Source of the DNA: a virus
Virus record (IMG/VR): IMGVR_UViG_3300034022_000629
Coordinates: 1-64,000 of that record
Reading direction: 5' to 3' (one strand)
DNA: 64,000 bases
A program made the translations under genes and the position numbers. This document shows, in pieces, positions 29,973-63,999 of the stretch. The notes below the pieces were generated by a model that was not told the DNA's origin, made no database searches, and was given only the letters and a program-made list of their open reading frames with translations. How positions within the stretch are numbered: the first letter of the stretch is position 1; every line of letters begins with the position of its first letter.

Positions 29973-29976
29973 GATT

Positions 29977-35220: not shown

Positions 35221-35226
35221 CTATTT

Positions 35227-46579: not shown

Positions 46580-47383
46580 TTAAATTAACGCCTTTTTGGG
46601 TTGTGTTAATCCCAATGGTAGGTATTCTCTGAAATTTTTATATATATAATCGAATAATACTCTACCATAGTGTTTATGATGTTCAATACCAGGATGTAAA
46701 TTATCTGAACCTAAGTCCATTTTAAACTTATCTAATGCTGTAAATCTATTAAACTCCTTATAATCCGTTAGTAAATGTTTACCATCCCATAACCAATTAC
46801 ATTTTTTTGACTCTAAAAATAACTTTATTAACATATGATTTTTATACCAATTTACAAAATCGGCATTTTTATTTTGTAATGCGTCCATACTACTTTGAAT
46901 TATTTTACCGTCTTCCGTTTCCGATAATTTTCCCCAGGATTTGGTTGGTATATATGGTTCGATACTATTATCTTCAGTATAAATTTCTCTCCTATGTGGG
47001 AATGTATACATTATTAAAACTAAATCTGGTTTAATTAAATCATAATAACTCATTAAACACCTACTTATAAAATCATTACTCCTTCCTCCTGTTCCAAAAT
47101 TAAAATTTACACCATTTTCAATATGACTACAAAATTGAGCGGGCCAAGTTTCATCATCATTTACACCAACACCTTCAGTGATTGAACAACCTAATGACAT
47201 TACCTTAAACCCTTCTTTTTTTATACTGTCACCTCTAAACCCCAATTCATTATATGTGTATACACATTTACCAGTGCTATCACCACCAGAAGTTGTGTAA
47301 GTTTGATTTACTCTTTCTTTTAATGAATATCTATAAGATGATATTTCAAATCCTTCTGGATTCCAATATTGTAAAGATTTCAT
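46580..47383 (-). CDS. SGNH-hydrolase-like protein with a G-C-S variant of block I
   Basis: MSLGCSITEGVG matches the LGDSITEG block of SGNH esterases except Cys replaces Asp. Confidence 0.35.
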   Translation of the reverse strand: MKSLQYWNPEGFEISSYRYSLKERVNQTYTTSGGDSTGKCVYTYNELGFRGDSIKKEGFKVMSLGCSITEGVGVNDDETWPAQFCSHIENGVNFNFGTGGRSNDFISRCLMSYYDLIKPDLVLIMYTFPHRREIYTEDNSIEPYIPTKSWGKLSETEDGKIIQSSMDALQNKNADFVNWYKNHMLIKLFLESKKCNWLWDGKHLLTDYKEFNRFTALDKFKMDLGSDNLHPGIEHHKHYGRVLFDYIYKNFREYLPLGLTQPKKALI

Positions 47384-47883
47384 ATCAATTTATTTATTTC
47401 CAATGGATTTATGTGTTCGTTTTGTAAAAACCATAATAAAGAGTATCGTTCTCCTTTTAAAATTGTTGTTATTTCGTGGTCTATTCTTGTATCAAATAAA
47501 TATGTATTCCCCATCACTTTATTTAATACGATTTCATTTGGGTTATACAACTTAAAGTCTCCACCCTCAAAATCGTCACTTAATAAGACTCCCACAGCAT
47601 ATAGCCTATTTTCTCGAATGTCGTTGTGTTTTCCAAACCAATCACCTTTTGTAAATTTATGAAAATGAATGACTTCTTTATTTCTTTTTATTTGTATGTT
47701 TGATTCTTCTTCAAAAAATGTTTTAAGTTTATCAAACAACCATTTGGTTTCCAACGAATATCTAATTGGTTGTGAATTGAATTTTCTATCGCCCATTATC
47801 CAATTTGTAATGTGAGTGTCGTTATATAATATTATAGATTCACACTCCTCTTTACTAAATAATATTTTTTCTTTTAAAATCAT
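47380..47883 (-). CDS. 2OG-Fe(II) oxygenase superfamily protein (prolyl-hydroxylase-like)
   Basis: FGKHNDI...RIDHEIT gives the H-x-D...H facial triad spacing; 167 aa. Confidence 0.45.
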   Translation of the reverse strand: MILKEKILFSKEECESIILYNDTHITNWIMGDRKFNSQPIRYSLETKWLFDKLKTFFEEESNIQIKRNKEVIHFHKFTKGDWFGKHNDIRENRLYAVGVLLSDDFEGGDFKLYNPNEIVLNKVMGNTYLFDTRIDHEITTILKGERYSLLWFLQNEHINPLEINKLI

Positions 47884-48415
47884 ACGTTAAAGTATATGTG
47901 TCTTTTCTATATTTTTTATCATAATCAATCATATCCAAATGTTTTGGATTTTCAATATTTAAATAACTAATTACCTTATTAACATCTGTTTTATTAACGT
48001 ATATGTTTTCATATGTTGTTTGAAATAAATTTTTATTTTTTAAACGGTTTTTTAAATGTTCATATTTGTAAACCATTTCTATTATTTTATTTTTATTGTC
48101 ATCAATCCACTCATTTGTTATCTCATATGTCTCGTGCCACCTTCCTTTATTATCTGCATTAATAAAACTTATGGCACTGTCAATATCATTTTCTCTACTC
48201 AAACAAATAACCTTATCAAATTTTTCAATAACTTCATTTGATGGGTTATATTCTTCAATAACAATTTTTCTAATTATATTATTTTTTTCAAATACAGAAT
48301 TAAATTGTTTAAAATCATAATGTGTTGCATCTAATTCAATATCTAATTCTTTCGATATCCATTTACATAATGTAGTAGAACCACATCTTGTATGTGATAG
48401 TATTAAAATTCTCAT
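47855..48415 (-). CDS. sulfotransferase-like P-loop protein
   Basis: SHTRCGSTTLCKW resembles the 5'-phosphosulfate-binding loop, and LSRENDIDSAIS resembles the 3'-phosphate R-x-x-x-D-x-x-x-S motif. Confidence 0.45.
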   Translation of the reverse strand: MRILILSHTRCGSTTLCKWISKELDIELDATHYDFKQFNSVFEKNNIIRKIVIEEYNPSNEVIEKFDKVICLSRENDIDSAISFINADNKGRWHETYEITNEWIDDNKNKIIEMVYKYEHLKNRLKNKNLFQTTYENIYVNKTDVNKVISYLNIENPKHLDMIDYDKKYRKDTYTLTYDFKRKNII

Positions 48416-49456
48416 CTATATCAATGTTTTATCTGTATTATCTATAAACTCATATAGGTTATGAAAAAGGTTTTGATTTTTCCATATTCTATTTAACTCT
48501 TTTTTAAATAAATGATGTTCAGGGTGTTCATCGTCCCATACTTGCTTTAATTTAAATTCACCTTCAGAAAATGTTCCCCAATTAGTTATTTTACCAAAGA
48601 ACACATTTACTTTCTCACCAAAAATGGAATACATCAAGTTATAAAATTCTTCCATTTCCATATAGTTAGAATCTTGAACAACAAAGGATGTTTTTACATT
48701 TATAGGTAACGTACTTATGAATTTTAAATTATCTATTAGATTATCCCATTTACCACCTAATCTAGTTTTATTTTCATACGTGTCTTTTGTTCCCGCATCT
48801 ATACTGATTTCACAAGTGTGAACATATTTGTGTATGTTAGACATACTATCCCACATTTCTTTATTCCACATTGATGCGTTAGTGTGTAAGTGTATTGATT
48901 TTAGATTTGGATATTTTTTGGGGTTGAAGTTTCTAAGATAATTCCTAAATCCAACTGATACAAATGGATCCCCGGAACCGGTGATGTATAATGTTTTTAC
49001 GTATTGTGAAAAGTAAGTGTCAATGTCTTCAATTGTTTTCTCTACTCGTTTTATACCTTTACTGTCTTCAACAATTAAATCTACCCTACAAGAAGGACAT
49101 TTGTAATTACAAGTCCTATCAAAATTCATCACTATATTATCTGGTGTATTATTCTTTACTATTGGGTCAACAATGGTTGAATTTGATTTTAGTGTTACTG
49201 GTCCAGATGTTACACCGTAGTTTACTAATTTACTTAAATAAGGACAAAGCTCTTTACTACAATACTTAAACGAACCATCTAATATTGAATTTCTAATGTT
49301 AATTATTGGTTCACTGTTGTAAACATCTTTTAACGGTATTTCAGATAATTCCACTTTGTTTGGTAACCAGGATGGGCAACACACAAAACAAACATTATTA
49401 TGTATTTCTAATGAATTAAATGGCACATTACACGTGTAATTTTTTAAATCAACCAT
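48416..49456 (-). CDS. radical SAM enzyme with an N-terminal Cys-rich extension
   Basis: DRTCNYKCPSC is the CX3CX2C motif, sitting about 115 aa into the protein. Upstream of it lies YTCNVPF...NNVCFVCCPSW. Confidence 0.55.
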   Translation of the reverse strand: MVDLKNYTCNVPFNSLEIHNNVCFVCCPSWLPNKVELSEIPLKDVYNSEPIINIRNSILDGSFKYCSKELCPYLSKLVNYGVTSGPVTLKSNSTIVDPIVKNNTPDNIVMNFDRTCNYKCPSCRVDLIVEDSKGIKRVEKTIEDIDTYFSQYVKTLYITGSGDPFVSVGFRNYLRNFNPKKYPNLKSIHLHTNASMWNKEMWDSMSNIHKYVHTCEISIDAGTKDTYENKTRLGGKWDNLIDNLKFISTLPINVKTSFVVQDSNYMEMEEFYNLMYSIFGEKVNVFFGKITNWGTFSEGEFKLKQVWDDEHPEHHLFKKELNRIWKNQNLFHNLYEFIDNTDKTLI

Positions 49457-49459
49457 TGT

Positions 49460-50185
49460 TTAAATTAATTGATTTCTTGGTTCGAATCTTTTTTCAAAGT
49501 TATCGAACACCCATTTTTTTAACTTATCATCTTTTACGATGTTGTTTTTTATTGGGTTGCTTTTATTTATTCTACCTACCTTGAAATCAATTTCATATTT
49601 GTTACACATAAACTCTTCAAATTTATCGATTTCATCGATATTAAATTCATAGGTACATTTATTATTATCGACCCAATATGATTGAGATAGTAACAGTATA
49701 AGTGGATTAAAAGTATAGTCTATATTTTTAGGTATATTTTTCACAAATTTATATATTATTGATTTGTTAAACTCCCTCATTTTAATTATTTCTTCATATT
49801 TCGTTAAGTCGGTTTTCATTTCCCCAATCGAATAAATTGAATCTACATAATCATTAGTAAAATTATTATATATAAAATCGTTATCAACATCCTCCCACTT
49901 TACGGACATTTCATTACCATTAATTTCGTACATATACCAACTATGTTGTAGTGCACTTATCCACCTATCAAAATAATTTCTTTTAATAACTACAGTTTCC
50001 ATTTTTCCAAAATTTACATATAGGTCAGATAACTTAACGTGTATATGTTTTGGATACTCTATATCTACTCCAAAATTGTGATGATTAATTGTAAGTGAAG
50101 AATTAAGAATTGAATTTTCGATTGACGTACTAGCACACCTCGGAACAGATACCCAAATTAAATTGTTATTTATACATATGGACAT
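49460..50185 (-). CDS. sulfotransferase-like protein (second paralogue)
   Basis: VSVPRCASTSI and VIKRNYFDRWIS parallel the two motifs of the 47855-48415 protein. Confidence 0.35.
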   Translation of the reverse strand: MSICINNNLIWVSVPRCASTSIENSILNSSLTINHHNFGVDIEYPKHIHVKLSDLYVNFGKMETVVIKRNYFDRWISALQHSWYMYEINGNEMSVKWEDVDNDFIYNNFTNDYVDSIYSIGEMKTDLTKYEEIIKMREFNKSIIYKFVKNIPKNIDYTFNPLILLLSQSYWVDNNKCTYEFNIDEIDKFEEFMCNKYEIDFKVGRINKSNPIKNNIVKDDKLKKWVFDNFEKRFEPRNQLI

Positions 50186-50191
50186 AATAAA

Positions 50192-50473
50192 CTAGATAAA
50201 TGTTTTATTAGTTTTTTCCTCCATTTTATATTTTTTATCGATTACTTCCCATTTTCCCAATGGGCAGGGATTAAATTCCAGACTAAAAATTTTTTTGGAT
50301 ATTGGACAACCACATTCACCACATATTGTGGCAAGTTTTAGTTTTTTAGTAATTACTTTTTTTGATGGACATACATCACATACCCCACCTCTTTCGATTG
50401 ATTTGTTCAATTGATTTTCATTGGGGTTATAACTAACAACCCACGCATCAATTATCTCCTTAATGTTAATCAT
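50192..50473 (-). CDS. small Cys-rich (Zn-ribbon-like) protein
   Basis: CDVCPS...CGECGCP...CPLGKW, i.e. multiple CxxC pairs. Confidence 0.35.
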   Translation of the reverse strand: MINIKEIIDAWVVSYNPNENQLNKSIERGGVCDVCPSKKVITKKLKLATICGECGCPISKKIFSLEFNPCPLGKWEVIDKKYKMEEKTNKTFI

Positions 50474-50565
50474 TATTAACTGTTATCTTGTACTATTAGA
50501 TTTCCTATTGTAGTAACTATAGAATCTGTAAGTTGTTTTTCTTGATTTGTCATATTTTTAATTTT

Positions 50566-52038
50566 TTAAGCGCAGTAATTACAAATACCATTATTACAAC
50601 ATTGTCCCTTATTACAACTACCTTGTCCACCATATGGTGTGCCGAAGCACTCGAAGTTATTATGTTCAACAGCCGCAAAGTAAGATACATCTGAAATGGT
50701 TGGGTTACCTGTCGATGTTAAAAATAGATGAGCTCTTTCTACACCAATTGTCCATCCTGAAAATTCTTGATCCACAATATTAATTGATTGAACGGTTTTT
50801 TCTACGATTTGTACGTTTTCATATTCTGATGTGTCTATAAGTAAAACAACATTTCCAGGAATAAAATCCATTATTTTAACAAATTTTATTTCATTATTTT
50901 CGTAAATTAAATAACTCGAACTAATAGTGTCAAACCAGTTTGTTCCATCGGTAAATGTTATTTCGGCAATCTCCACAGTAATATCTATTCTGTTTTTAGT
51001 GGTAACTTTATTTGTACTATAAATTACACCATCTAGAAACGTTTGCATATCGATTTGATAGTTCGCTAAAACGTTTATGGCGTCGATATTGTCGGCATTA
51101 GGGATGTCAATGGTTCTAAGAAGGTCTCCCACCTGTAAATCTAATCCACTTTTTGTTGTACCGTCGGCCATAATAACATAGTCGTCATCCAATAATTTTG
51201 GTTGATTTAATGTAAAGTCTGTGGTATAATAAATCTTTCTGTAAAGTCTATCAATTTCAAAAGTTTCTTCATTATAGATAATATTATTTGTTAATTTTTG
51301 AATTGATATATCAGTGTAAGACCCTATATGAATTGATTCTAAATTTGGGGGGAATAACATACTTATTTTTCTAATCTTAGTTACCCTATTAGAATGAACT
51401 TTTGATTCGTTAAAATAATACGGCATTAAAAAATAATCTTTAGTAACGTTTTGTAAAACGAGGTCCAATTCTGTTTGATTTGTCACCTTATAAAACTTAG
51501 GATAGACTTCCTTATTATAAGCAGGTTTTACGGCTTTTAAAATAAAATTAGGATGTATCCCATTGTCTTGGATGTTTGTTATATTATTTATTAGAACATC
51601 TTCTTCATTTAAATAAGCGAATTCCGAACCAAATTCACTATCCTTAATCAAATTTAAATATTCAATTTTATTTGCACAATAAGAACTATCCAATATAGCC
51701 GTGGTGTCAAATGAGGTCCTCACAATTAAATGTGTTGTACTATCTTCAATATATGGAATTGTTATTGAAGTTGGAGTGGTACCAATTGTTTCAAATTCCA
51801 AAGATAAATTTGTTGCTACGTTTTGAATTTGTTCTTTAATTTTAACGTTCGCCCCTATATATGTTATCTTCGTAAACAAATTTGAGGTGACAAAATTCTG
51901 AAAATCTGTCATATCAAATACTTCATTATCATTTTCTATTTTTTGTATGGGATATCCGATATTCGTATTCATCTCAATAGGTCTTAAATCACCCGCTGAA
52001 TCGTAGACAAAATCTAAACCAACTATTACTGCTCTCAT
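50566..52038 (-). CDS. hypothetical protein with a Cys-rich C-terminal knot
   Basis: 490 aa ending GSCNKGQCCNNGICNYCA. A promoter-like motif lies upstream at 52055-52068. Confidence 0.4.
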   Translation of the reverse strand: MRAVIVGLDFVYDSAGDLRPIEMNTNIGYPIQKIENDNEVFDMTDFQNFVTSNLFTKITYIGANVKIKEQIQNVATNLSLEFETIGTTPTSITIPYIEDSTTHLIVRTSFDTTAILDSSYCANKIEYLNLIKDSEFGSEFAYLNEEDVLINNITNIQDNGIHPNFILKAVKPAYNKEVYPKFYKVTNQTELDLVLQNVTKDYFLMPYYFNESKVHSNRVTKIRKISMLFPPNLESIHIGSYTDISIQKLTNNIIYNEETFEIDRLYRKIYYTTDFTLNQPKLLDDDYVIMADGTTKSGLDLQVGDLLRTIDIPNADNIDAINVLANYQIDMQTFLDGVIYSTNKVTTKNRIDITVEIAEITFTDGTNWFDTISSSYLIYENNEIKFVKIMDFIPGNVVLLIDTSEYENVQIVEKTVQSINIVDQEFSGWTIGVERAHLFLTSTGNPTISDVSYFAAVEHNNFECFGTPYGGQGSCNKGQCCNNGICNYCA

Positions 52039-52065
52039 ATTATTTTCTTATTTCTATATAAATAT

Positions 52066-52281
52066 CTATTTTTTATCTTTTAATCCGTATTTAATCCATC
52101 TATACCATATCCTCTCGTGAAGATAATATTGAACGGGTTTATAGACCAATTCAGCAACCCCAAACGCGGCGCCAACCTTAATAGAACCACTTATCCACCA
52201 CATTAAACCAAATCCAATTAAAGTACTTATAATTCGATATGAGATGGTTTTAGCTATGTGTCTCTTACGCTCTACAATCAT
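52066..52281 (-). CDS. DUF2061-like small membrane protein
   Basis: 71 aa, 2 TM, with a basic tail. Confidence 0.35.
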   Translation of the reverse strand: MIVERKRHIAKTISYRIISTLIGFGLMWWISGSIKVGAAFGVAELVYKPVQYYLHERIWYRWIKYGLKDKK

Positions 52282-52661
52282 TACCCCTTAGTTTGGTCAT
52301 ATTTTATGGTTCCGTCAGGACTCATATGTCCAGTTCTAATTGCGGTTCCACTAATCACCGCAACATCTGCAGGTGGTTCGTGATAGATTACATCGTAACC
52401 CACTCCTCTACCATAGTTGATACTTTCAATATCTGGAATGATAGATAGTAAAATCTTATCAAAATTTTCATTAAAGAATGGTTCCTGTATTAACATTTGA
52501 AACACCTCTTGAGCGGTTTTTGGGTTATTCTCATCGACTTGAACGTCTCTGATTGCCACCCAAACATTCTTACCTTGGGATAGTTGTTGGTTAATTAACC
52601 ATTCGTGACCTTTGTGCCAATTCTGCCAACGGCCGACGTACATTGCGTACTTCTTACTCAT
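52281..52661 (-). CDS. minimal nucleotidyltransferase (cytidylyltransferase / HxGH superfamily)
   Basis: YVGRWQNWHKGHEWL carries the H-x-G-H motif, and the C-terminal ISGTAIRTG resembles the ISST/RTxGISTT motif; 126 aa. Overlaps the APS kinase gene by 8 nt. Confidence 0.45.
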   Translation of the reverse strand: MSKKYAMYVGRWQNWHKGHEWLINQQLSQGKNVWVAIRDVQVDENNPKTAQEVFQMLIQEPFFNENFDKILLSIIPDIESINYGRGVGYDVIYHEPPADVAVISGTAIRTGHMSPDGTIKYDQTKG

Positions 52662-53115
52662 ATGATTTTAATTTTAATTTAAGTTCCTGAACAGTTTCAA
52701 ATTCAGGTCTATTAGTGGTATCTATATCTATAAAAAATTCGGTAGGGGGTTGGTAATTTTCAACGTGAAATTGTTCCCTACCTCTGATATCAGTTGTATG
52801 TACATATACCTCAACCAAATCCTCGCCCATTGTGGATTTAAATGTATCTCTTTGATCTTTATAAGGTGAAACTAATGAGACAATTGCAACGTCTCCCTTT
52901 TTGTGAATAAATTTGGCAATATTTTGTGCCAATTCAATATTTTTACGTCTTCCTTGCTCGGAATAGTCTTTGTTTTCGAATATCTCTCTAATGTCGTCAC
53001 CGTCCACAACTACCCCTTTGTTTGGGTACGACGCTTGTAACCAACCAGCTAATGTTGTTTTTCCTGAACCAGGTTGACCCGTTAACCATATAATCATATG
53101 GAAAATATAACGCAA
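52654..53115 (-). CDS. cysC: adenylylsulfate (APS) kinase
   Basis: IWLTGQPGSGKTTLA is the P-loop. VVDGDDIRE, RRKNIELAQNIAKF, VIVSLVSPY and the C-terminal ENYQPP parallel the canonical CysC blocks. Confidence 0.7.
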   Translation of the reverse strand: MRYIFHMIIWLTGQPGSGKTTLAGWLQASYPNKGVVVDGDDIREIFENKDYSEQGRRKNIELAQNIAKFIHKKGDVAIVSLVSPYKDQRDTFKSTMGEDLVEVYVHTTDIRGREQFHVENYQPPTEFFIDIDTTNRPEFETVQELKLKLKSYE

Positions 53116-53179
53116 AAAAATTGTAAAATCAATGGATGGTTACACAATTTTACAATTAATTACTTTGAAATAGCGACTA

Positions 53180-53401
53180 TTAAAGTTCTTCGGATACTGG
53201 TTCTAACTCTGAGTAATGATAACTAACACCATCTACAACTAACGCTAATGTGTCTTTAAACTCATTATATGCTTGAAATGAGATGTTTTCTTTAATAAAT
53301 GTTAAAGCCTCTTCTTTAGTTGCGAAGGTATGATTAGCAATTTCTAATAATTCATCTTCACCGGCTGCATTTATGGTTAAACCGTTTATTTTGTAGTTCA
53401 T
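53180..53401 (-). CDS. small hypothetical protein
   Basis: 73 aa. A promoter-like motif lies at 53415-53430. Confidence 0.35.
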   Translation of the reverse strand: MNYKINGLTINAAGEDELLEIANHTFATKEEALTFIKENISFQAYNEFKDTLALVVDGVSYHYSELEPVSEEL

Positions 53402-53465
53402 ATTCTTTCTTTTTTATATAAATATCACAGTTATTAATAAAGTTTGTACTCGAATCCGTATTCAT

Positions 53466-54053
53466 TCAAAAAATGGTTTTATATATATTTCCCTCTATGA
53501 TAATATCTGATTTAGATATATCGGGGTTTATCGTCTTTCCAAAATTGTTTTGTTCGGTGTATAACACTTTAAATGATGGAGGTAAAGAGACTAATTCCCA
53601 ATCAACACTTCTTTTAAAACCATTCTGTTTAAAATGTTCTATCAATTTTTCCGCACCTTTGGGTTTTATCAAATAACAATAACAATTTGGGAACCACTGA
53701 GTTATATTATTTAAAAAATATATATCAAAATCCTTTTGAAACAGTTCCTCTAAGTTTAAAACTTCATTATTGATTAAGTCAATATCATCCTCAAATACAC
53801 ATATGTTTTTTTGTTGTCTCAAACATTCCTCCCACATCAACATATTTGACAATGCAACAGATCTTACACAATTAGGGTCAACATTCCAAAGGTGATAATC
53901 TGATTCTTTAAAAAAATCTTTGGGTGCTTCTTGCAATTTACCATCTAATGCGTCGAAAAAACTAAATGGATATTTTTCACCAATTAGTTTTGATATGTAA
54001 TCTCTTCTATCTTGTCTTCTTTTTAATGATAAGACTTTAACTTCGTAATTCAT
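53466..54053 (-). CDS. GT25-family (LgtB/Lic2B-like) glycosyltransferase
   Basis: The N-terminal KVLSLKRRQDRRDYI...FFDALDG matches the GT25 N-terminal signature. Confidence 0.5.
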   Translation of the reverse strand: MNYEVKVLSLKRRQDRRDYISKLIGEKYPFSFFDALDGKLQEAPKDFFKESDYHLWNVDPNCVRSVALSNMLMWEECLRQQKNICVFEDDIDLINNEVLNLEELFQKDFDIYFLNNITQWFPNCYCYLIKPKGAEKLIEHFKQNGFKRSVDWELVSLPPSFKVLYTEQNNFGKTINPDISKSDIIIEGNIYKTIF

Positions 54054-57837: not shown

Positions 57838-58649
57838 ATTCGATTTACAATTTCATCATTTTTTAATAATTTCCATCCCGTTTTATTTAAACAGATTGGT
57901 TCCTTACTATTATTTATTTTTGATACCCAATAATTAACAAACTCTTCGGTTTTAGACTCTAACTTTAAATTTAAAAATGGTAATATGTTCTCATTTAGAT
58001 AACGAAAATGTTCCTCCACAGTTGGGTGCCATTCATACAACCAATCATTAGGTTTATTTTCATCCCACATAGTTTTAAGTCTCTTTTTATTAGTGATATC
58101 ATTTCGTTCAGTTAAATTAAGATACTCCATCATAGGTGGTAAATCAAGTGTAATGTTGTAAAAGTCAACAACGTCGTTTACCGACTGAAATAACAATCCT
58201 TTTTTACTCGAATCGATTTGTTTCAAATCGGACATTGAAAATGTGACAACCTTAGCACCAATAAGATTAACAAATGATTTTAAATTTGAAATAGTTGCAC
58301 AATCTCTAAGAGCGTAATGTGTTGGATCAGCCCAGGTTACCTTAAAGTCATCTGTATAAACATTGGCGGTGAAAATATTTCCAGGCGTATGCCACTTTCC
58401 ATTTGACCTCCTATCCTCTCTTTGAAACGATGTCCAATTGAATATAATTAGATCTTCGTGATTAAATTTATAGTGTTTGTGAGCCTCCATAAACTTTATA
58501 AAAAGATATGAATTTCCCGCACCACACCTACCAAAGTTTCTACCATAAAGTCCTTTATTCTTGAAATCTTCTACCATAATATCGGCCCAAGTTGGCCAAG
58601 CATATGAGGTAAAACTACAACCAAACGTAAAAACTCTTTTGAAATTCAT
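57813..58649 (-). CDS. SGNH-hydrolase-like protein (G-C-S block I variant)
   Basis: The N-terminal FTFGCSFTSYAW parallels FGDSFT. Confidence 0.35.
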   Translation of the reverse strand: MNFKRVFTFGCSFTSYAWPTWADIMVEDFKNKGLYGRNFGRCGAGNSYLFIKFMEAHKHYKFNHEDLIIFNWTSFQREDRRSNGKWHTPGNIFTANVYTDDFKVTWADPTHYALRDCATISNLKSFVNLIGAKVVTFSMSDLKQIDSSKKGLLFQSVNDVVDFYNITLDLPPMMEYLNLTERNDITNKKRLKTMWDENKPNDWLYEWHPTVEEHFRYLNENILPFLNLKLESKTEEFVNYWVSKINNSKEPICLNKTGWKLLKNDEIVNRIWEQPNIL

Positions 58650-58650
58650 A

Positions 58651-59715
58651 TTATAAAATTGTTTTTCTTGTGTTTTCCCAAATATTGATATTACCTTTTA
58701 GGAATTTATAGTATCGACTACTAATGTTTTCTACCTCACTACTTTGACCGAATATGTCATTCATTTTTTGTATTGAACTAAATCCATTAAATCTTTGTAT
58801 GATTGTTTCCCTAACAATGAAAAGTACGGCGTCTAATGATTTGTTACCACATAAATGTATTATCCAGTTAAAATCATAATTGGCTAAGGCGTATAATTCA
58901 GTTTCATTACTTATTATTTTTTTCTTATTATTAAAACTAATTGTAAATGGATACGTTATATTAACCAAATCAGAAGTTTCGTGATTTATTGATAGATTTT
59001 GTTGTTGATTAAATAAATAAAATGTCTCCTTCTCCTCCTTAACAACATCCTCATCAATTATCTCATCTTCTTTATTAATCATTTTTATTGCTGTGGATAT
59101 AAACAACTGTTCAATAACACAAGCGTAATAGTAATTGGAATCGAAATGTTCTTTATTCTCCTCGTATATTTTTAAACAATATTCACTAGCCTTTTTAATA
59201 GTTTCGTAATCGTTACCACCAAAAATGCACATATTTGGAATATCAAAAAAATCAATATGTTTTTTAAATTCTTCGGGTAATTTATCTTCAATTTCAAAAG
59301 TTCCTTTTAAGTACGTATTATACATACTCATATTGGTTTTAAAGTTATTTTCTTTTTTTAGTGGGATATCGCTTGAAGCGTAGAATACTGGTTCTTTGTC
59401 TATTTTTTTTGGTAACGCATAAATAAAAGTATCCAAATCTAAATGTGCAAATGGTTCGGTTTGTAAACTATATGTCACCATTTTTGGAATTGAGAATGTT
59501 TTACATTTAAACCCATCGAATGGTTCGGTTATAATTTCATCATAAGGTACACCTAACTTTCTTACTATTTTTTCAATATCTTTTGTGGTATATAGAATTA
59601 CTTTATCAAAACTAAATTTAGCTAGATGTACAGATAATAACATATTATATGCTAAACTTCTATTGAAGTTACTTTTTATGTTGTGACTTGGGACATATGT
59701 GTGTATTCCAATCAT
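58651..59715 (-). CDS. hypothetical protein
   Basis: 354-aa ORF inside the glycan module. Confidence 0.4.
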   Translation of the reverse strand: MIGIHTYVPSHNIKSNFNRSLAYNMLLSVHLAKFSFDKVILYTTKDIEKIVRKLGVPYDEIITEPFDGFKCKTFSIPKMVTYSLQTEPFAHLDLDTFIYALPKKIDKEPVFYASSDIPLKKENNFKTNMSMYNTYLKGTFEIEDKLPEEFKKHIDFFDIPNMCIFGGNDYETIKKASEYCLKIYEENKEHFDSNYYYACVIEQLFISTAIKMINKEDEIIDEDVVKEEKETFYLFNQQQNLSINHETSDLVNITYPFTISFNNKKKIISNETELYALANYDFNWIIHLCGNKSLDAVLFIVRETIIQRFNGFSSIQKMNDIFGQSSEVENISSRYYKFLKGNINIWENTRKTIL

Positions 59716-60425
59716 ATTAATTTTTTTGCTTTCATTGAATCATCCAATTCCGAGTTTAATTTTTCATTATGTCTAATAGTATAATGAATTAAATCATTTA
59801 TATGTTCCGAAATCACTTTGTGTGCGTTTTCACTATAATGCGCATCTTGTATCTTTCCTTCTGTCTCTTGTAAAATGGTTTGAACAATCGGTAATGATAT
59901 TACATCCATTCCCTGATGAAAATTATAAAAGGGTGACCAATGTATTATGATATTATTATGAAAGGTTCTGTTTAATAATATCATTATTCTATTCAATTCA
60001 GTTACATAACAGGAACCGTCAAGTCTATTAACTAAAACCTCTTCAACAGTATCAGGTGAAACCCCAATTAATTTAGCCGTTTCTTTTTTAAATGTAGAAT
60101 CCCCACCAGGAAGTATACTTGTAAATTTACCAAATTTATTTGCCAACCTTGTTCTATGTATACTAGACCAACCAATAACAATCACATCCCCATCTTTTAT
60201 TTGGTCTAAATGATTTATAATGATATCCAAAATGGTGTAATTATCTGCACCTCCGTGTCCTCTATTGTGGCAAGTATATCCATAATCATCGATTAAAAAA
60301 TCCGAAAATACTTTAGGTGAATATCCCTTATATTCAGCATATTTAAATCTCCAATCCTTTAAGTTTGGTACTGGTGACATTGATTGTGTAAACGAATCCC
60401 CAAATACCCAAATTGTCTTACCCAT
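59712..60425 (-). CDS. SGNH/GDSL hydrolase (canonical GDS block)
   Basis: The N-terminal TIWVFGDSFTQS is block I, GHGGADNYT is block II-like, and DAHYSENAHK near the C-terminus is a D-x-x-H block. Confidence 0.5.
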   Translation of the reverse strand: MGKTIWVFGDSFTQSMSPVPNLKDWRFKYAEYKGYSPKVFSDFLIDDYGYTCHNRGHGGADNYTILDIIINHLDQIKDGDVIVIGWSSIHRTRLANKFGKFTSILPGGDSTFKKETAKLIGVSPDTVEEVLVNRLDGSCYVTELNRIMILLNRTFHNNIIIHWSPFYNFHQGMDVISLPIVQTILQETEGKIQDAHYSENAHKVISEHINDLIHYTIRHNEKLNSELDDSMKAKKLI

Positions 60426-61821
60426 TAAAATTTAATTTTTTATATGTTTCATAAATTTCATCTGTACTAACCATAACATTAAAATTGTTAACAAATACAG
60501 ACTCCATTTCTTTAGTTATTTTATACATTTTTTCTTGGTCCCACGTTGATATTTCCTCCATTACATCTATTATCTTTTCTAACCTTTTTGCGAAGTCCAA
60601 TTCTGTGTCGTAACTTTCATCCCACCACTTATCAAAGGTTTGAAACCCATATTCTTTTAATTTAGTTAAGGAATTTGGGTTTCCTATTAATATAAACGGT
60701 TGTGCACAAAAAATAGGTTTGAATGTTTTCTCTGAAAAGAAAATAGAACTATTGTTAATTAACGATTCAGTTACAACGTTAACAAACGATGAGTTATGCG
60801 CTCCTAAATTTAAATTAGTTGCTTTATTATTTTCTAAATCTGGTTCATCATATATAGATGAAATTGTTGAATCGTACCCTCTGTAAAATTCAATTAGTTT
60901 TTCTTTATGAAGTCTATTCATTAAGAGACCTTGGATGTGCACCAAATAGTCATTTTTACGATTAATTAACGAAGCGCCTAACGAGGTTATATGGGAAGTT
61001 AGTTTTTTGTTTGTTTTTAATTCAGCAAAAATCGCCATCCTATGTAATTTTGGTACTCTATTGAAACATAAAAATTGATTAGTTTTATAATGATTTTTAT
61101 TATTTTCAATAGAACTATAAAATCCCTTTTTTAAAGACTCTTGAGCATTTAAATCTGACATTTTACCATTATCATAAAACCAAAGATTATGTTGGAAATA
61201 GTTGTATGGTATGATGGTAAAACTATCAGTTACGTAACCCTTTGAAACTAATTTGTTTTTAGATTCTAAAGCCTTTAGGTTAGCACAAATGAAAATAAGA
61301 TGTTCTTTATCAAAACCGTATCTCTTTGAGAGATTATCCATCCAAATAAAATCATTTTGTTTATCTCCAAAGAACCCTTCAGTTAATTGTATAAAACATA
61401 TCTTTGCTTTCTTTTCTAAAACCTTTTTAATTAATCGTTCATTAAAATCAACTGTGGGGTAATTCTCATATAGGGAGGGGGTAAATAAAACAATTGGGTA
61501 AATAAAATTAATGTTCTTATCGATTGCGTCATCTAAGGTGTGTGCTTTAAAAACATTATGAGTATTATCAAAAAATTCTTCAAATTTTTGTGAGTGAAAT
61601 TGTCCCATAACTCTCTTAAAATCTTCAGTTACCTCATTTGTTATTGTATATGGAAATTTAATATCTAATTCTTTTTCCACCTCGTCAAGTCTATCACATT
61701 TAGCGGTATACCAAGTATGAATGTCATAATTAACTAAATTGGAGTTACCATAGTAGATTTTACCATTTTCATCGTAAACTAAAACTTCGTTATAAGCGAC
61801 ATTTATTTTCTCAATATTCAT
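60418..61821 (-). CDS. hypothetical protein
   Basis: 467-aa ORF. Confidence 0.4.
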   Translation of the reverse strand: MNIEKINVAYNEVLVYDENGKIYYGNSNLVNYDIHTWYTAKCDRLDEVEKELDIKFPYTITNEVTEDFKRVMGQFHSQKFEEFFDNTHNVFKAHTLDDAIDKNINFIYPIVLFTPSLYENYPTVDFNERLIKKVLEKKAKICFIQLTEGFFGDKQNDFIWMDNLSKRYGFDKEHLIFICANLKALESKNKLVSKGYVTDSFTIIPYNYFQHNLWFYDNGKMSDLNAQESLKKGFYSSIENNKNHYKTNQFLCFNRVPKLHRMAIFAELKTNKKLTSHITSLGASLINRKNDYLVHIQGLLMNRLHKEKLIEFYRGYDSTISSIYDEPDLENNKATNLNLGAHNSSFVNVVTESLINNSSIFFSEKTFKPIFCAQPFILIGNPNSLTKLKEYGFQTFDKWWDESYDTELDFAKRLEKIIDVMEEISTWDQEKMYKITKEMESVFVNNFNVMVSTDEIYETYKKLNFNG

Positions 61822-61837
61822 ATAAAATAATTATCAA

Positions 61838-63100
61838 TTATATCATTTTTTTGTTTATTTCTGTATAGAACTTTAAACCAATTTCCGTTTCAAATTTCTC
61901 CAATCTCAATTTGTCTAACGTGTCGTTATATTTTTTAAATTTTTGATATAAATCAAACTTATCTATATTATCAACGTCAGTGACACTAAAAAGGTAAATA
62001 GACCCCAATAGTTCCATTATTTCCTTTCTAACCTCTTCACATACACCTAACAACTCTAAATCCTCGTTAAACGTCTCTAAACGAGTTTTAAACCTATTCT
62101 TAATATCATCAGATATCCATTTACAACTTAAATAATCAGGACCATATATTGGGTTTATGGCTAACATCCTTCTTCGTGAGTAATTTATGTTTTTTTCAAT
62201 TAGTCCTTGGTTGATTAGTTCAATAATCATATCAAACGTGTGTAGATAATTTAGAACCCCATAAGAAAATGTGTAAAAAATATGTGAATTAGTTAAAAAT
62301 TCAGATACTTTATTAGCGTTTTCAATGAATGATTCAGTCTTAAACCCTGAACGAATGTATTCACCAACCTTACCTACACCATCAAGACTTGGAAATAGGG
62401 TAATCTTATCAAAATGAGACCAATAATCAAAGATGTGTTTATCTTTGTAGGTAATTTTAGATAGATTGGTACTATACCTTAAATAAACTTGTTTATTCCT
62501 TTTAATTAACTCATCAAGAATGTCATAATGGTGTGCGCTAATCAAGGGTTCCCCACCAGCAAAATATATTTCATCAACATATTCATAATGGTCACCTAAT
62601 TGTTTTAAAAAATCCTCAGTATCATCTAGTGTAATAATTGCTTGGTTACCTTGGTTACTATTCATACTAACGGCATCGTTAAACCAGGAGGAACTAAACC
62701 CGTGATAACACATTCGACATTTAAAATTACATAGGTTTGTAATTCTTATATCCCATAAATGGAACTTTGTTTTGTCACCATCAACGTATTCAACACAATC
62801 CGGATATTGTTTATTAAGTCTTTGTCTATATGATTCTGAATTCAGTTTCTCATTATTAATACAGTTTGAGCATTGTTTGACAACTTCACCGTTTAGCATC
62901 TTACCCTTAATTTCTTTGGACTTATCTGATTGGTAAATCTCACTTAACGAATCATTGTTAATATTACCAAGAGGATCATTTAAATCCCAATTACAACAAG
63001 GAAGAACATTACCATTTGGATGAACGTAAACACTCATCCAAGGTGCAACACAAAAAGATTTTGAATCAACTAGTAAAGATTTCTTCTCATTTTCATTCAT
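61838..63100 (-). CDS. radical SAM enzyme with an N-terminal Cys-rich extension
   Basis: ITNLCNFKCRMC is the CX3CX2C motif, about 120 aa in. Upstream is FCVAPWMSVYVHPNGNVLPCCNWD, which parallels the 48416-49456 protein. Confidence 0.55.
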   Translation of the reverse strand: MNENEKKSLLVDSKSFCVAPWMSVYVHPNGNVLPCCNWDLNDPLGNINNDSLSEIYQSDKSKEIKGKMLNGEVVKQCSNCINNEKLNSESYRQRLNKQYPDCVEYVDGDKTKFHLWDIRITNLCNFKCRMCYHGFSSSWFNDAVSMNSNQGNQAIITLDDTEDFLKQLGDHYEYVDEIYFAGGEPLISAHHYDILDELIKRNKQVYLRYSTNLSKITYKDKHIFDYWSHFDKITLFPSLDGVGKVGEYIRSGFKTESFIENANKVSEFLTNSHIFYTFSYGVLNYLHTFDMIIELINQGLIEKNINYSRRRMLAINPIYGPDYLSCKWISDDIKNRFKTRLETFNEDLELLGVCEEVRKEIMELLGSIYLFSVTDVDNIDKFDLYQKFKKYNDTLDKLRLEKFETEIGLKFYTEINKKMI

Positions 63101-63999
63101 TACATAAAGTAGTTTACTAAGGTCGGGTAATTCGTTTTAACGATATCAATTGTCGATTCACTTCTGTAACCATCTAATATTGTAAATTTTGTATATTCCT
63201 TTTTTAGTTCATCATCACTTGGTTGTTTACTATACATAAATTCAACTAATGCTTTGATGTCATTTGTTTGTTCTTTAAAATCAAACGTTTCCCAATGTGA
63301 CTTTATTCTATCTTTTTCCTCTTTAGGTAACATATAGATTGACATATGTGGTGGGTAGTGAACAATGTTTAACCAAAAGTCAAATAGAGGGGTGTTATCT
63401 CTCATCCATTGAATTGTTTTTGGTAATTCATACGCATTTACCCAAGAAGTTGTGTGGGTGTAGGTGAACCCTAAATTCCTATATTTCTTTTTTAGTTCGT
63501 GGTACTTAAACAAGTTCTCTTTCACTTCATCCCATATTGCATTTTTTCTAAGGTACTCAAACGTTCCTTCTGTTCCATCAATACTCAAACCAATACCAAC
63601 CGCTTTAAATCCCTCACAGATTTTAATCATTAGGTCTTCATTAAGAATGGTACCGTTGGTGGACATATTCAACAAGATATTCTTACTGTGTCCTTCATTA
63701 ATCATATGTGTTAAGACTCTTTCCCAAGTGTTTGAATAGAATGGTTCTCCACCAACAATTTCAAGTCTTCTAACGTGAGGTAACCAAGTATCCATACTTT
63801 CAATAAACTCACTTGTTTGGTGTCCAGGTTGTCCGTGTTGTAGTCCAAAATATCGAATTCCAAATTTTTCCCATTCCGATTCTGGAATGTCGTTTACTTC
63901 TTTCAACCAACTAGTACTGTGACTTGGTGAACAACTTCTACATTTTAAATTACAAGAGTTGTTTAGAATTATTTGATAGTCTTCCGGATATTCAGGCAC
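63100..63999 (-). CDS. radical SAM enzyme, 5'-truncated by the window edge
   Basis: NNSCNLKCRSC is the CX3CX2C motif. The track's first codon is GTG at the window edge and the frame stays open upstream. Confidence 0.5.
   Translation of the reverse strand: MPEYPEDYQIILNNSCNLKCRSCSPSHSTSWLKEVNDIPESEWEKFGIRYFGLQHGQPGHQTSEFIESMDTWLPHVRRLEIVGGEPFYSNTWERVLTHMINEGHSKNILLNMSTNGTILNEDLMIKICEGFKAVGIGLSIDGTEGTFEYLRKNAIWDEVKENLFKYHELKKKYRNLGFTYTHTTSWVNAYELPKTIQWMRDNTPLFDFWLNIVHYPPHMSIYMLPKEEKDRIKSHWETFDFKEQTNDIKALVEFMYSKQPSDDELKKEYTKFTILDGYRSESTIDIVKTNYPTLVNYFM

Follow-up and report, generated by a model that had tools for sequence, protein, structure and literature searches.

RaxST sulfates RaxX, Cj1415 of Campylobacter is a homologue of CysC, and enzymes of the NodU/CmcH type have mostly sugars or small molecules as their substrates. 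Campylobacter Cj1415-Cj1418 make CDP-phosphoramidate 3'-phosphate (PMC11800397), and phages are known to encode glycosyltransferases that hypermodify DNA (as cited in PMC12619734). A kinase and a nucleotidyltransferase (NTase) related to those described below form a single polypeptide in phrog_10255 and in gp32 of Xylella phage Salvo; in Salvo and DLP6, the gene for this fusion is surrounded by DNA-metabolism genes, and no sulfotransferase is annotated near it. In the phage locus described here, kinase and NTase are encoded by separate, overlapping genes, in one island with sulfotransferases and a carbamoyltransferase.

Organisation and genomic setting of the island

The stretch of DNA analysed (the window; 64,000 nucleotides, positions 1 to 64,000 of IMG/VR record IMGVR_UViG_3300034022_000629) comes from an uncultured freshwater jumbo phage. 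Positions 46580-63999 are occupied by 21 back-to-back ORFs, all on the minus strand, most of them overlapping by 1-29 nt or separated by gaps of less than 30 nt. The block that they form is the right-hand portion of a tailoring island flanking the fibre genes. Its genes run straight into a co-oriented tail-fibre gene 54 nt downstream (42428..46525; 1365 aa, C-terminal intramolecular chaperone domain, Pfam Peptidase_S74 7e-11, PHROG tail-fibre families). The first-pass annotation had placed the module immediately downstream of the tail-fibre genes; in the direction of transcription it is in fact upstream. ORFs for DUF2061, DUF6734 and Hint-domain/Cys-rich proteins, as well as the Cys-rich 93-aa, the 467-aa and the 73-aa ORFs, were missing from the earlier list. 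Elsewhere, the window contains a Trp halogenase gene and an Asp/Asn hydroxylase-like gene, located across the fibre genes from the island, a second glycan cluster at 22953-32177, and genes for a long ThyA homologue and two C5 DNA methylases.

About 300 viral contigs in IMG/VR share the island, on one strand. Close relatives of the NTase are encoded by 294 IMG/VR stretches, on contigs of up to 316 kb, and a JGI contig of 636 kb has identical gene order. In 80 viral loci, all homologue matches (635/635) are on the strand of the NTase gene. The order of the core genes is carbamoyltransferase, APS kinase, NTase, DUF2061, (halogenase), sulfotransferase, Cys-rich 93-aa protein (Cys93) and Hint protein. 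In 33 loci, 6 kb or more is available on either side; 26 of these encode a sulfotransferase of one or both families, and 25 encode the carbamoyltransferase. Trp halogenase and radical-SAM/SPASM genes recur in the islands of relatives; the glycosyltransferases are not conserved. The island consists of a conserved core and variable flanks.

A block devoid of phage-specific function, whether a host polysaccharide locus acquired by chance or bacterial sequence introduced by mis-assembly, would be in line with the GC content of the island (27-33%, slightly lower than in the remainder of the window) and with the presence of a few homologous contigs in bacterial MAG bins (e.g., Chitinophagaceae and Flavobacteriaceae). 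The MAG-bin contigs are short, however, and carry the same phage genes, while the viral contigs, as well as contigs of 250-636 kb, have the island always on one strand and leading into fibre genes. Short overlapping ORFs are also in the style of a phage, and no bacterial housekeeping, Wzx/Wzy or export genes were found among the ORFs scanned with Pfam or NCBIfam (all 21 of the island and some 40 elsewhere in the window). This reading, to which we assign a negligible probability, is already contradicted by the data.

APS kinase and minimal NTase

The compact kinase (52654..53115; Pfam APS_kinase 1.3e-20) probably starts at the ATG at 53097, which yields a 147-aa protein. The top 24 PDB matches to its family profile are all APS kinases (best, 2e-18), and the family shows no variation in the P-loop, DGDxxR, RxxN and SP(Y) motifs. 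The lid region is shortened, with the canonical lid absent, and the protein does not reach the NCBIfam equivalog cut-off. Overlapping the kinase gene by 8 nt is the gene for the NTase (52281..52661), a minimal HxGH adenylyltransferase of 126 aa with motifs GRWQNWHKGH and ISGTAIR. The NTase is highly conserved and is NMNAT/PPAT-like by sequence and fold, its family profile matching archaeal NMN adenylyltransferases at 1e-14. The next gene (52066..52281; Pfam DUF2061 9.3e-16) codes for a small membrane protein with two hydrophobic helices and has counterparts in 85 of 87 related loci (median identity, 87%).

Production of PAPS had earlier been attributed to the kinase, with the HxGH protein treated as incidental. 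Membership in the APS-kinase family stands, but a kinase alone is insufficient for PAPS synthesis, as it requires APS. Comparative data point to the HxGH protein, together with DUF2061, as the probable APS-forming partner. An APS-kinase domain is present in 41 of the 150 NTase-family representatives listed, with both domain orders occurring, and in 39 of the 45 listed representatives of at least 200 aa; some of the fused kinase domains match over their full length, at 1e-50 to 1e-69 (up to 231 bits). Across a non-redundant set of 33 loci from bacteria and archaea, APS_kinase is clearly the top family within two genes of the NTase gene (20/130 neighbours), and ATP-sulfurylase/CysDN families are absent from the top 25 neighbour families. 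The NTase gene is found with Sulfotransfer_5, APS kinase, flippase, glycosyltransferase and rfb genes in SAR406, next to Rrf2 and sulfite reductase-TusA genes in Nitrospiraceae, and, in marine archaea, in the order MetK and AhcY, APS kinase, NTase, GlyA, MsrA. One clade of cellular homologues (Thermodesulfobacteriota, Dadabacteria) lacks a sulfur context, and some related phages have NTase and DUF2061 genes without an adjacent APS kinase gene. DUF2061 is also encoded 3' of a fused APS kinase-NTase gene in the unrelated phage L090, and, in the stretches compared, L090 and the likewise unrelated phage L094 share only the APS kinase-NTase-DUF2061 triad with the phage described here.

The kinase and the NTase could, alternatively, make a product other than PAPS (another 3'-phosphorylated nucleotide donor, or NAD salvage by an NMNAT and a kinase, as in NadR), leaving the sulfotransferases to use host PAPS. 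The sub-threshold score and short lid of the kinase would agree with this, as would the Cj1415-Cj1418 precedent for a 3'-phosphorylated nucleotide donor and the location of the Salvo/DLP6 fusion gene amid DNA and nucleotide genes. Yet canonical, full-length APS-kinase domains are found in many of the fused relatives, and the kinase of the island retains the DGDxxR, RxxN and SP motifs. Moreover, the contexts of the NTase involve sulfotransferase, sulfite reductase and Met/Cys metabolism rather than NAD genes, the NTase is without the segment that binds NMN in NMNAT, and no glutamine-kinase or amidohydrolase partner, as in the MeOPN pathway, was found. We consider this alternative unlikely.

Sulfotransferases and carbamoyltransferase

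Two PAPS-type sulfotransferases that belong to different families are encoded in the island. In the case of the 241-aa Sulfotransfer_2/HS2ST-like protein (49460..50185), the family profile matches heparan-sulfate 2-O-sulfotransferase structures 3f5f and 4ndz at 2e-4, with 5'-PSB loop, catalytic HxH site and 3'-PB motif all inside the matched region. Residues P15, H47, H49, R69 and S77, which correspond to PAPS-binding and catalytic His motifs, are invariant, and the homologue from locus L007 has a weak Sulfotransfer_2 match. The compact 186-aa protein (47855..48415) is NodH/Stf0-like: R10, G12 and S13 (5'-PSB) and R74 and S83 (3'-PB) are invariant in its family, its relatives are named "LPS sulfotransferase NodH" by JGI, and Foldseek analysis of its AF2 model (pLDDT 83.6) returned Stf0 as the best match (1tex, 3e-4), followed by many SULTs. 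The P-loop proteins noted in the first-pass annotation as kinase and sulfotransferase-like are thus assigned to APS-kinase and sulfotransferase families, and not to unrelated ones. The NodU/CmcH-type O-carbamoyltransferase (56158..57837; Pfam Carbam_trans_N 1.9e-57, Carbam_trans_C 3.9e-60) is 29-33% identical to "Nol-like carbamoyltransferases" of S-SSM7, P-SSM2, HTVC008M and RsoM2USA.

Hypermodification of phage DNA (by glycosylation or carbamoylation of bases), rather than of surface structures, would be in line with the presence of the ThyA homologue and the two C5 methylases in the window and with the known DNA-hypermodifying glycosyltransferases of phages. These genes, however, are more than 25 kb from the island, with an opposite-strand block in between, while the island abuts, and is co-oriented with, the fibre gene. 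In addition, both sulfotransferases resemble carbohydrate-acting enzymes, and no signature of a DNA-base kinase, glycosylase or transferase was found. DNA as the substrate is highly improbable.

Other tailoring proteins and the nature of the acceptor

The rest of the enzyme inventory was likewise confirmed by HMM, profile and fold searches. CX3CX2C is present in all three radical-SAM ORFs: enzyme A (63100..63999; Pfam Radical_SAM 4e-8, CNLKCRSC), which is truncated by the window edge (the L009 homologue has 411 aa), enzyme B (61838..63100; SPASM 2.7e-13, Radical_SAM 1.4e-12), with an N-terminal SPASM-like Cys-rich domain, and enzyme C (48416..49456; Radical_SAM 2e-9, CNYKCPSC). Glycosyltransferases of the GT25 (53466..54053; Pfam Glyco_transf_25 3e-17) and GT2 (54037..54714; Glycos_transf_2 4.3e-9) types are encoded beside a two-domain protein (54686..56035) in which a GT7-type match is limited to the C-terminal domain (Glyco_transf_7C 2.7e-12, residues 363-423). 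The 2OG-Fe(II) oxygenase (47380..47883; 2OG-FeII_Oxy_3 7.3e-6) is barely over threshold (27.3 bits versus a cut-off of 27). There are also a DUF6734 protein (58651..59715; Pfam 7e-21), a 467-aa protein (60418..61821) with homologues in 12 related loci and no Pfam, PHROG or NCBIfam match, and a 73-aa ORF (53180..53401) that is called as a gene in relatives and has homologues in 8 loci.

Three proteins had been described as SGNH-type. Invariant Ser/Gly/Asn/His blocks bear this out at the motif level, but database matches are sub-threshold only. The 237-aa protein (59712..60425) has an N-terminal FGDSFT and, in its family alignment, invariant S11, G59, N62 and H202; the sole PDB match to its profile is an SGNH hydrolase (E=0.74). 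The 278-aa protein (57813..58649; FGCSFT) aligns to this family, with invariant blocks in common, and has no Pfam or NCBIfam match. In the 267-aa protein (46580..47383), the GCSITEG, GRSND and DxxH blocks are invariant, Pfam Lipase_GDSL_2 (0.1) and NCBIfam AxeA1/GDSL (0.02-0.07) matches are below threshold, and no PDB match was found. By its motifs, the 237-aa protein is a putative esterase or acyltransferase; acyl transfer by any of the three is hypothetical.

The C-terminal half of a 490-aa protein (50566..52038) is Hint/intein-like (its L007 homologue matches Pfam Intein_splicing), with invariant H459 and N460 followed by a Cys-rich tail of ~30 aa with conserved Cys; no match was found in PDB or the phage database. 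Cys93 (50192..50473; homologues in 46 loci) is encoded next to it in most full-length loci. The Hint/Cys-rich tail and the Cys-rich ORF of the core, and the radical-SAM/SPASM and halogenase genes that recur next to it, also fit peptide tailoring. In such a RiPP-like or protein-tailoring island, the same chemistry would act on a peptide or protein: the role of the Hint protein would be release or presentation of its Cys-rich tail, Cys93, radical-SAM/SPASM enzymes, halogenase and 2OG oxygenases would cross-link and decorate this tail, and the sulfotransferases would modify Tyr, Ser or Thr residues, in the manner of RaxST with RaxX. The conserved core does include the Hint/Cys-rich protein and Cys93 and zero glycosyltransferases, Trp halogenase and SPASM radical-SAM genes are recurrent in the island, and the halogenase and hydroxylase-like genes of the window lie beyond the fibre genes. 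On the other hand, the closest relatives of both sulfotransferases (HS2ST; NodH/Stf0) act on carbohydrates, as NodU/CmcH enzymes mostly do on sugars or small molecules, three glycosyltransferases are encoded within the island, another glycan cluster is located elsewhere in the window, and no RiPP precursor or leader could be recognised. A peptide or protein acceptor is unlikely.

A sulfated, carbamoylated and possibly acylated virion glycan, as proposed in the first-pass annotation, is consistent with the enzymes and with the phage context, but is one possibility only: the glycosyltransferases are not conserved among relatives, so a glycan target is based on the gene content of this window. 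The earlier interpretation is, overall, partly supported. The tail fibre, the immediate neighbour, which has tandem repeats that are rich in Ser/Thr and contain N-A-T, is a possible target of modification.

Proposed pathway

The best explanation of the island as a whole, to which we give a probability slightly above one half (ca. 0.55), is that NTase and kinase supply PAPS for sulfation of an acceptor, most likely a surface glycan, that is also O-carbamoylated. The HxGH adenylyltransferase would convert ATP and sulfate to APS, acting as a functional analogue of ATP sulfurylase, and the translationally coupled kinase would convert APS to PAPS. The DUF2061 membrane protein would assist the two enzymes, perhaps through membrane anchoring or sulfate access. 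The two sulfotransferases would then sulfate the acceptor and the carbamoyltransferase would modify the same molecule, which here would most likely be a glycan made by the neighbouring GT25, GT2 and GT7C proteins and displayed on the cell or virion surface. With variable flanks, the product would differ from strain to strain.

Comparison of the NTase with known adenylyltransferases

The NTase has no match to the ATP-sulfurylase family PF01747, and a PDB search with its family profile, at E values up to 10, yields no ATP sulfurylase. Judging from its fusion or adjacency to APS kinase and from sulfur-gene contexts across phages, bacteria and archaea, it may nevertheless be a minimal analogue of ATP sulfurylase, in which case the phage could make its own PAPS. 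Compared to NMNAT, the NTase family is without ~30 residues after the DIE motif and has there, instead, an invariant Gly/Arg loop, NYGRGVGY; this replacement makes a small acceptor plausible. If this reading is true, the NTase would be a previously unrecognised kind of sulfate-activating enzyme.

Layout of the island and its phage context

The island at 46580-63999 contains 21 ORFs, all on the minus strand, with neighbours either overlapping by 1-29 nt or lying a short gap apart. The last of them is followed, after a 54-nt gap, by a 1365-aa ORF (42428-46525, minus strand), which we identify as a tail-fibre gene based on PHROG tail-fibre matches and a C-terminal Peptidase_S74 intramolecular chaperone domain. 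The first-pass annotation placed the block downstream of the fibre genes, but the minus-strand ORFs run into the fibre ORF, and with respect to transcription the block therefore lies upstream of it. The rightmost ORF is broken at the window edge (its homologue in a related locus, L009, is 411 aa long), so the island extends past the window. The fibre protein contains Ser/Thr-rich and N-A-T-containing tandem repeats (43268-43485, 43877-44115, and 45216-45548, minus strand). The repeats with N-A-T sequons are 26 aa long (TPYNATNPSGYISSITSGNVTTALG), and the Ser/Thr-rich repeats are 18 and 22 aa long (GSLSSSVATTTSGLSSSI).

Elsewhere, the window resembles a large tailed phage, with genes for an M23 peptidase carrying a peptidoglycan-binding domain, for ThyA, for two C5 DNA methylases, and for a PcfJ-like protein. 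To tell a tailed phage from a host locus, we looked for structural genes on the same sequence and for recurrence among viral contigs, and both were found. The 'moraphage' lineage (PMC12619734) is a possible home of the window phage, and its host is expected to belong to Bacteroidota. No tRNAs were found in the 64-kb window, and a promoter and terminator scan revealed no enrichment compared to shuffled sequence. At 382 aa, the thymidylate synthase homologue (20172-21320, minus strand) is unusually long, and a large insert sets it apart from the 266-position profile. Since it lies close to two C5 cytosine DNA methylase ORFs (14700-15668 and 11289-11903, minus strand), a DNA-modification module is possible.

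A second glycan cluster is located on the strand opposite to the island (22953-32177, plus strand), and contains two GT4s, an NAD-dependent epimerase/dehydratase, four to five GT2s, a methyltransferase, and a UDP-galactopyranose mutase. Beyond the fibre genes, as seen from the island (32697-37436, minus strand), lie genes for an Asp/Asn beta-hydroxylase-like protein, a DUF401 membrane protein, and a Trp halogenase (3.8e-105); in relatives, the halogenase is encoded within the island, with DUF2061 on one side and a sulfotransferase on the other. The ~40 kb around the fibre genes code mostly for tailoring enzymes.

Tailoring enzymes and sulfotransferases

The NodU/CmcH carbamoyltransferase named in the first-pass annotation was recovered by two Pfam domains, both matched full length and above threshold (Carbam_trans_N, 196 bits, 2e-57; Carbam_trans_C, 203 bits, 4e-60). 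Three ORFs scored above the Pfam Radical_SAM threshold and contained the CX3CX2C motif, in agreement with the proposed number of radical-SAM enzymes. One of them (61838-63100, minus strand) also contained SPASM (Pfam, 2.7e-13); in this protein, the usual domain order is reversed, with the SPASM-like Cys-rich domain N-terminal (17-80) and the radical-SAM core at 119-278. The predicted GT2, GT25, and GT7-like glycosyltransferases were also recognized by Pfam, including a Glyco_transf_7C domain, as was the 2OG-Fe(II) oxygenase, the latter with a borderline match. The SGNH label, which had been given to three proteins, is provisional: the Ser/Gly/Asn/His blocks I (GxS), II (G), III (GxN), and V (DxxH) are invariant in family alignments, but no significant database match was obtained (HMM and PDB matches were at 0.02-0.74, and a PDB profile search with the 267-aa protein returned no useful match).

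Several ORFs were missing from the original list, namely DUF2061 (52066-52281, minus strand; 9e-16), DUF6734 (7e-21), a 467-aa ORF, a 73-aa ORF, the 490-aa Hint protein (50566-52038, minus strand), and a Cys-rich 93-aa ORF, Cys93 (50192-50473, minus strand). The C-terminal half of the Hint protein is Hint/intein-like; at its end, an invariant HN precedes a ~30-aa Cys-rich tail (GQGSCNKGQCCNNGICNYCA). In related phages, it is usually paired with Cys93. A PDB profile search with the Hint protein gave no useful match.

The two sulfotransferase-like P-loop proteins reported earlier are real, though divergent, as judged by profile, motif, and fold evidence. The family profile of the 241-aa protein (49460-50185, minus strand) matched heparan-sulfate 2-O-sulfotransferase (HS2ST) at 2e-4, over the 5'-phosphosulfate loop, the catalytic HxH, and the 3'-phosphate motif; in 20 relatives, P15, (C17, S19), H47, H49, R69, and S77 are invariant or nearly so. 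On its own, the window protein gave no Pfam match above threshold. In the family of the 186-aa protein (47855-48415, minus strand; 56 sequences), R10, G12, and S13 of the 5'-PSB, RxGS(T), and R74 and S83 of the 3'-PB are invariant, and some members are annotated as NodH by JGI. The protein matched Pfam Stf0 at only 0.02, and its PDB profile search returned no useful match. Structure prediction, suggested by the first-pass annotation for the sulfotransferase-like proteins, was run on the 186-aa protein and revealed a sulfotransferase fold. The best fold match of the AF2 model (pLDDT 83.6) was Stf0, followed by more than 25 SULT (cytosolic sulfotransferase) structures, with TM-scores of just ~0.5 and with P-loop kinases interleaved with the SULTs. 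The 5'-PSB and 3'-PB by which sulfotransferases are recognized are present in both proteins, and the catalytic His is also present in the 241-aa protein.

An APS-kinase-family enzyme coupled to a minimal nucleotidyltransferase

The ORF at 52654-53115 (minus strand) was initially called an APS kinase on account of its canonical P-loop and CysC blocks. The motifs are indeed present, and Pfam APS_kinase is matched at 1.3e-20 (score 74.5, gathering threshold 21.1), over profile positions 3-110 of 152. In a motif test with the P-loop GxxGxGK(S/T), DGDxxR, RxxN, and (I/V)SP (PF01583, TIGR00455), the window kinase was found to contain GQPGSGKTT, DGDDIR, GRRKNI, and VSPY, each of which is invariant in 18 relatives. 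When a profile built from these relatives was used, the top 24 PDB matches were all APS kinases (best 2e-18), and the motifs line up with those of the solved structures. The score falls short of NCBIfam equivalog cut-offs (TIGR00455, 74.1 bits against 138.7), and the lid segment is shortened. The motifs place the window kinase in the APS-kinase family, and phosphorylation of the 3'-OH of APS is its predicted activity. APS kinase requires APS as substrate.

As the first-pass annotation had noted, the kinase gene overlaps the gene of a minimal 126-aa HxGH nucleotidyltransferase (52281-52661, minus strand; hereafter, NTase), members of whose family are at present named 'phosphopantetheine adenylyltransferase' (PPAT), 'adenylyl-sulfate kinase', or hypothetical by annotation pipelines. 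The overlap is 8 nt. By sequence and fold, the NTase is nearest to archaeal NMNAT and PPAT. Its family profile matches NMNAT at 1e-14, and the NadM nucleotide-binding motifs GRxQPxHxGH and ISxTxIR are kept. The NMN-binding segment after the DIE motif is deleted or replaced: ~30 residues are missing and an invariant NYGRGVGY loop is substituted, such that NTase profile positions 82-91 correspond to 1f9a chain residues 75-110. The NTase scores 31.7 bits against the NCBIfam NMNAT model, the cut-off of which is 127. No match to PF01747 (ATP sulfurylase) was observed in the Pfam search, and no ATP sulfurylase was found when the family profile was run against the PDB with E up to 10; a fused relative, P0279, gave a weak partial PF01747 match (1.6e-4). 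The ATP-sulfurylase signatures QxRNPxHxxH and GRDHAG are absent from the NTase, and its HxGH motif and GRGVG loop are only analogous to them. Membership in the ATP-sulfurylase or NMNAT families was rejected, as for neither family was the full set of defining features found.

Coupling or fusion to APS kinase and sulfur genes, a functional hallmark and not a mark of family membership, was observed for the NTase in several sets of relatives. An APS-kinase domain is present in 41 of 150 NTase-family representatives listed; among the 45 listed with a length of 200 aa or more, the number is 39. Fused relatives are found with either domain first, and some of the kinase domains are canonical and full length (1e-50 to 1e-69). 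At ~55 of 80 loci from GTDB genomes, which include SAR406, Bacteroidota, marine group III and Thermoplasmata archaea, Thaumarchaeota, and Nitrospiraceae, an APS kinase gene is fused to the NTase or located immediately upstream of it. Complete genomes with the pair include Fidelibacterota OZ243041.1 and Thermodesulfobacteriota OZ244991.1. A survey of the genes at +/-2 of the NTase, 130 genes from 33 non-redundant loci, showed APS_kinase as the most frequent family (20 genes), along with Sulfotransfer_5, Inositol_P (which includes CysQ), UDP-glucose dehydrogenase, SHMT, and MetK; the 25 commonest families of these neighbours include no ATP-sulfurylase or CysDN. The gene order is Sulfotransfer_5, APS kinase, NTase, flippase, glycosyltransferases, and rfb (O-antigen) genes in SAR406 (locus L098), and Rrf2, sulfite reductase-TusA, and NTase in Nitrospiraceae (L127, L132). 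In marine archaea (L131, L136), MetK and AhcY are followed by APS kinase, NTase, and GlyA, with MsrA and a Cys/Met PLP enzyme close by. A fused APS kinase-NTase gene followed by DUF2061 is also found in an unrelated phage, which has a sheath gene and encodes ClpP; within the stretches compared, this cassette is the sole similarity of such phages to the window.

The NTase is also fused to an APS-kinase-like domain in phrog_10255, to which gp32 of Xylella phage Salvo (L001, NC_042345.1, 15167-15913), annotated as 'kinase', belongs. Salvo gp24, 3.5 kb upstream of gp32, is annotated as 'cysteine dioxygenase', which hints at sulfur metabolism. Another phage fusion with a reversed, NTase-APS kinase domain order is found on a 39.6-kb Logan SRR26538809 contig (L092). 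The contig also codes for Hc1, a histone H1-like protein that has been reported from the aquatic 'moraphage' jumbo lineage.

Given the fusion or adjacency to APS kinase and the sulfur-gene contexts, the NTase is probably the APS-forming partner of the kinase, i.e., a functional analogue of ATP sulfurylase and not a member of its family. In the phage versions of the pair, and only there, DUF2061 would act as an accessory. Evidence against an APS-forming role comes from an NTase clade in Thermodesulfobacteriota and Dadabacteria that is without sulfur context (its neighbours are GATase, Leu/Phe-tRNA transferase, and Mpo1-like genes), from some related phages with no adjacent kinase, and from the fusion genes of Salvo and Stenotrophomonas phage DLP6, which are located among DNA-metabolism genes.

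Spread, conservation, and novelty of the island

More than 4600 homologues of the NTase were found in metagenomes; the best 120 of them are at least 88% identical and come from contigs of up to 636 kb. NTase matches were also obtained in 294 viral stretches of IMG/VR, on contigs of up to 316 kb, and the island is common in freshwater metagenomes. In related viral loci, all island-gene homologues (635/635) are on the NTase strand. The conserved core has the order carbamoyltransferase, APS kinase, NTase, DUF2061, (halogenase), 241-aa sulfotransferase, Cys93, Hint protein, and the variable flanks contain radical-SAM/SPASM and SGNH-like proteins, the 186-aa sulfotransferase, 2OG oxygenases, and glycosyltransferases. 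Median identity to the window protein in these loci is 87% for DUF2061, 83% for the NTase, 60% for APS kinase, 56% for the carbamoyltransferase, and 25-45% for both sulfotransferases, the Hint protein, and most other flank genes; the flank genes above this range (radical-SAM C, the 278-aa and 267-aa SGNH-like proteins, GT2, and the 73-aa ORF) are found mainly in the closest relatives. We conclude that this is a phage island which adjoins the fibre genes and varies at its flanks. The possibility, raised in the first-pass annotation, that a common host polysaccharide locus had been captured is rejected in view of the 294 viral matches, the single-strand order, and the conserved core. DNA hypermodification was also considered as the role of the island, and rejected.

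Phage glycan-tailoring islands and phage carbamoyltransferases are already known. Among 50,697 deposited phage genomes and the literature searched, we found neither an island that combines its own PAPS supply, two sulfotransferases, and a carbamoyltransferase next to fibre genes nor any sulfation arm equipped to supply its own donor; the first-pass annotation likewise knew of no established phage system of this composition. A tblastn search of these genomes revealed no homologue of the Hint protein, either sulfotransferase, or two other window proteins, and megablast of the 17.4-kb block against INPHARED gave no match. The literature searched contained nothing relevant on DUF2061, on a phage sulfotransferase with cysC, or on phage glycans that are sulfated.

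What the island may make

From the enzyme set, which is the observed part, we infer a product and a pathway. We give a probability of about 40% to the reading that the 110-130-aa GRxQPxHxGH...NYGRGVGY...ISATxIR protein is an unrecognised minimal class of sulfate adenylyltransferase, which arose from an NMNAT-like ancestor and forms a mini PAPS synthase with APS kinase, and that the phage lineage sulfates and carbamoylates a surface glycoconjugate, which may be its own fibres. The mini synthase would be split or fused, would be joined by the DUF2061 membrane protein in phages, and would serve SAR406, Bacteroidota, marine archaea, Nitrospiraceae, and many phages. PAPS produced in situ would feed the two sulfotransferases, making the jumbo-phage lineage self-sufficient for sulfation, while the NodU-type enzyme would add carbamoyl groups. 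The acceptor would be built by GT25, GT2, and GT7C in the window phage, and the radical-SAM, 2OG, and SGNH-like enzymes would bring strain-specific variation.

A serious alternative is that the island tailors a peptide or protein rather than a glycan: its conserved core is without a glycosyltransferase, and holds both the Hint protein with its Cys-rich tail and a Cys-rich ORF. With radical-SAM/SPASM, halogenase, and oxygenase genes close by, the Hint protein may cleave itself to release a Cys-rich peptide. If a surface glycoconjugate is sulfated and carbamoylated, as we propose, the targets could be the phage's own fibres. The fibre genes are flanked by tailoring genes on both sides, and the N-A-T and Ser/Thr-rich repeats are candidate glycosylation sites; together, these features agree with virion decoration. 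Remodelling of the host envelope is compatible with the data to an equal degree.

The mini adenylyltransferase coupled to APS kinase appears unrecognised, and the island contains an easily testable candidate for a new enzyme class. The NTase and APS kinase, with DUF2061 in phages, are a concrete candidate for a new sulfate-activation route, which, if true, would affect the scoring of sulfate assimilation and polysaccharide sulfation in genomes of uncultured microbes that are abundant in marine and fresh waters. If the product is on virions or on the infected-cell surface, sulfation would be added to the chemistry of phage-host recognition, and the island would be a rich source of compact sulfotransferases. 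Should the minimal-class reading hold, the product would be the first sulfated phage glycan.

Comparison with known systems

A NodU-type ('Nol-like') carbamoyltransferase is also encoded by large aquatic myoviruses, the cyanomyoviruses/pelagimyoviruses S-SSM7, P-SSM2, and HTVC008M, which presumably carry LPS-type islands with many glycan-tailoring genes; the island enzyme is just 28-33% identical to their copies. The S-SSM7 carbamoyltransferase neighbourhood was rejected as an analogous island, since the copy is located among replication genes. The pair of a CysC-like kinase and a nucleotidyltransferase resembles the MeOPN donor pathway of Campylobacter jejuni, the kinase of which is CysC-like. 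This pathway (Cj1415-Cj1418) produces a 3'-phosphorylated nucleotide donor for capsule decoration (PMC11800397). Its glutamine kinase and amidohydrolase were not seen in the island, the transferases of which are sulfotransferase-like. In mycobacteriophage virion glycosylation, phage glycosyltransferases decorate structural proteins (Freeman et al. 2023, as cited in PMC12619734). The window likewise contains phage-encoded glycosyltransferases, and a fibre whose repeats are candidate glycosylation sites; no sulfation or carbamoylation of virion glycans was found in the literature searched.

The phrog_10255 'kinase' (Xylella phages Salvo, Sano, and Bacata, Xanthomonas phage Seregon, and Stenotrophomonas phage DLP6) also combines an APS-kinase-like domain with an NTase, as one protein of 230-250 aa. 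Unlike the island, these genes (~30% identity) are located among DNA/nucleotide genes, with no sulfotransferase or DUF2061 annotated nearby. Compared to archaeal NadM (1f9a, 1hyb), the NTase is partnered with APS kinase and sulfur genes, and not with NAD genes.

In rhizobial Nod-factor decoration, NodP/NodQ are ATP sulfurylase and APS kinase, NodH is a sulfotransferase, and NodU/NolO is a carbamoyltransferase. The island follows the logic of this system, in which PAPS is supplied by dedicated enzymes and an oligosaccharide is decorated by a sulfotransferase and an O-carbamoyltransferase. It differs in that sulfate activation, as proposed, would be carried out by a 126-aa NMNAT-like protein instead of CysD/CysN-type NodP/NodQ, and in that the island is phage-encoded, adjoins a fibre gene, and has a DUF2061 partner. 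The NTase domain is also unlike that of bifunctional PAPS synthases, being ~115 aa long versus ~350, closest to NMNAT/PPAT, and without the ATP-sulfurylase Pfam signature; like these enzymes (Sat-CysC fusions such as Aquifex 2gks and human PAPSS1), it joins an HxxH-superfamily adenylyltransferase to APS kinase, by coupling or fusion and with either domain first.
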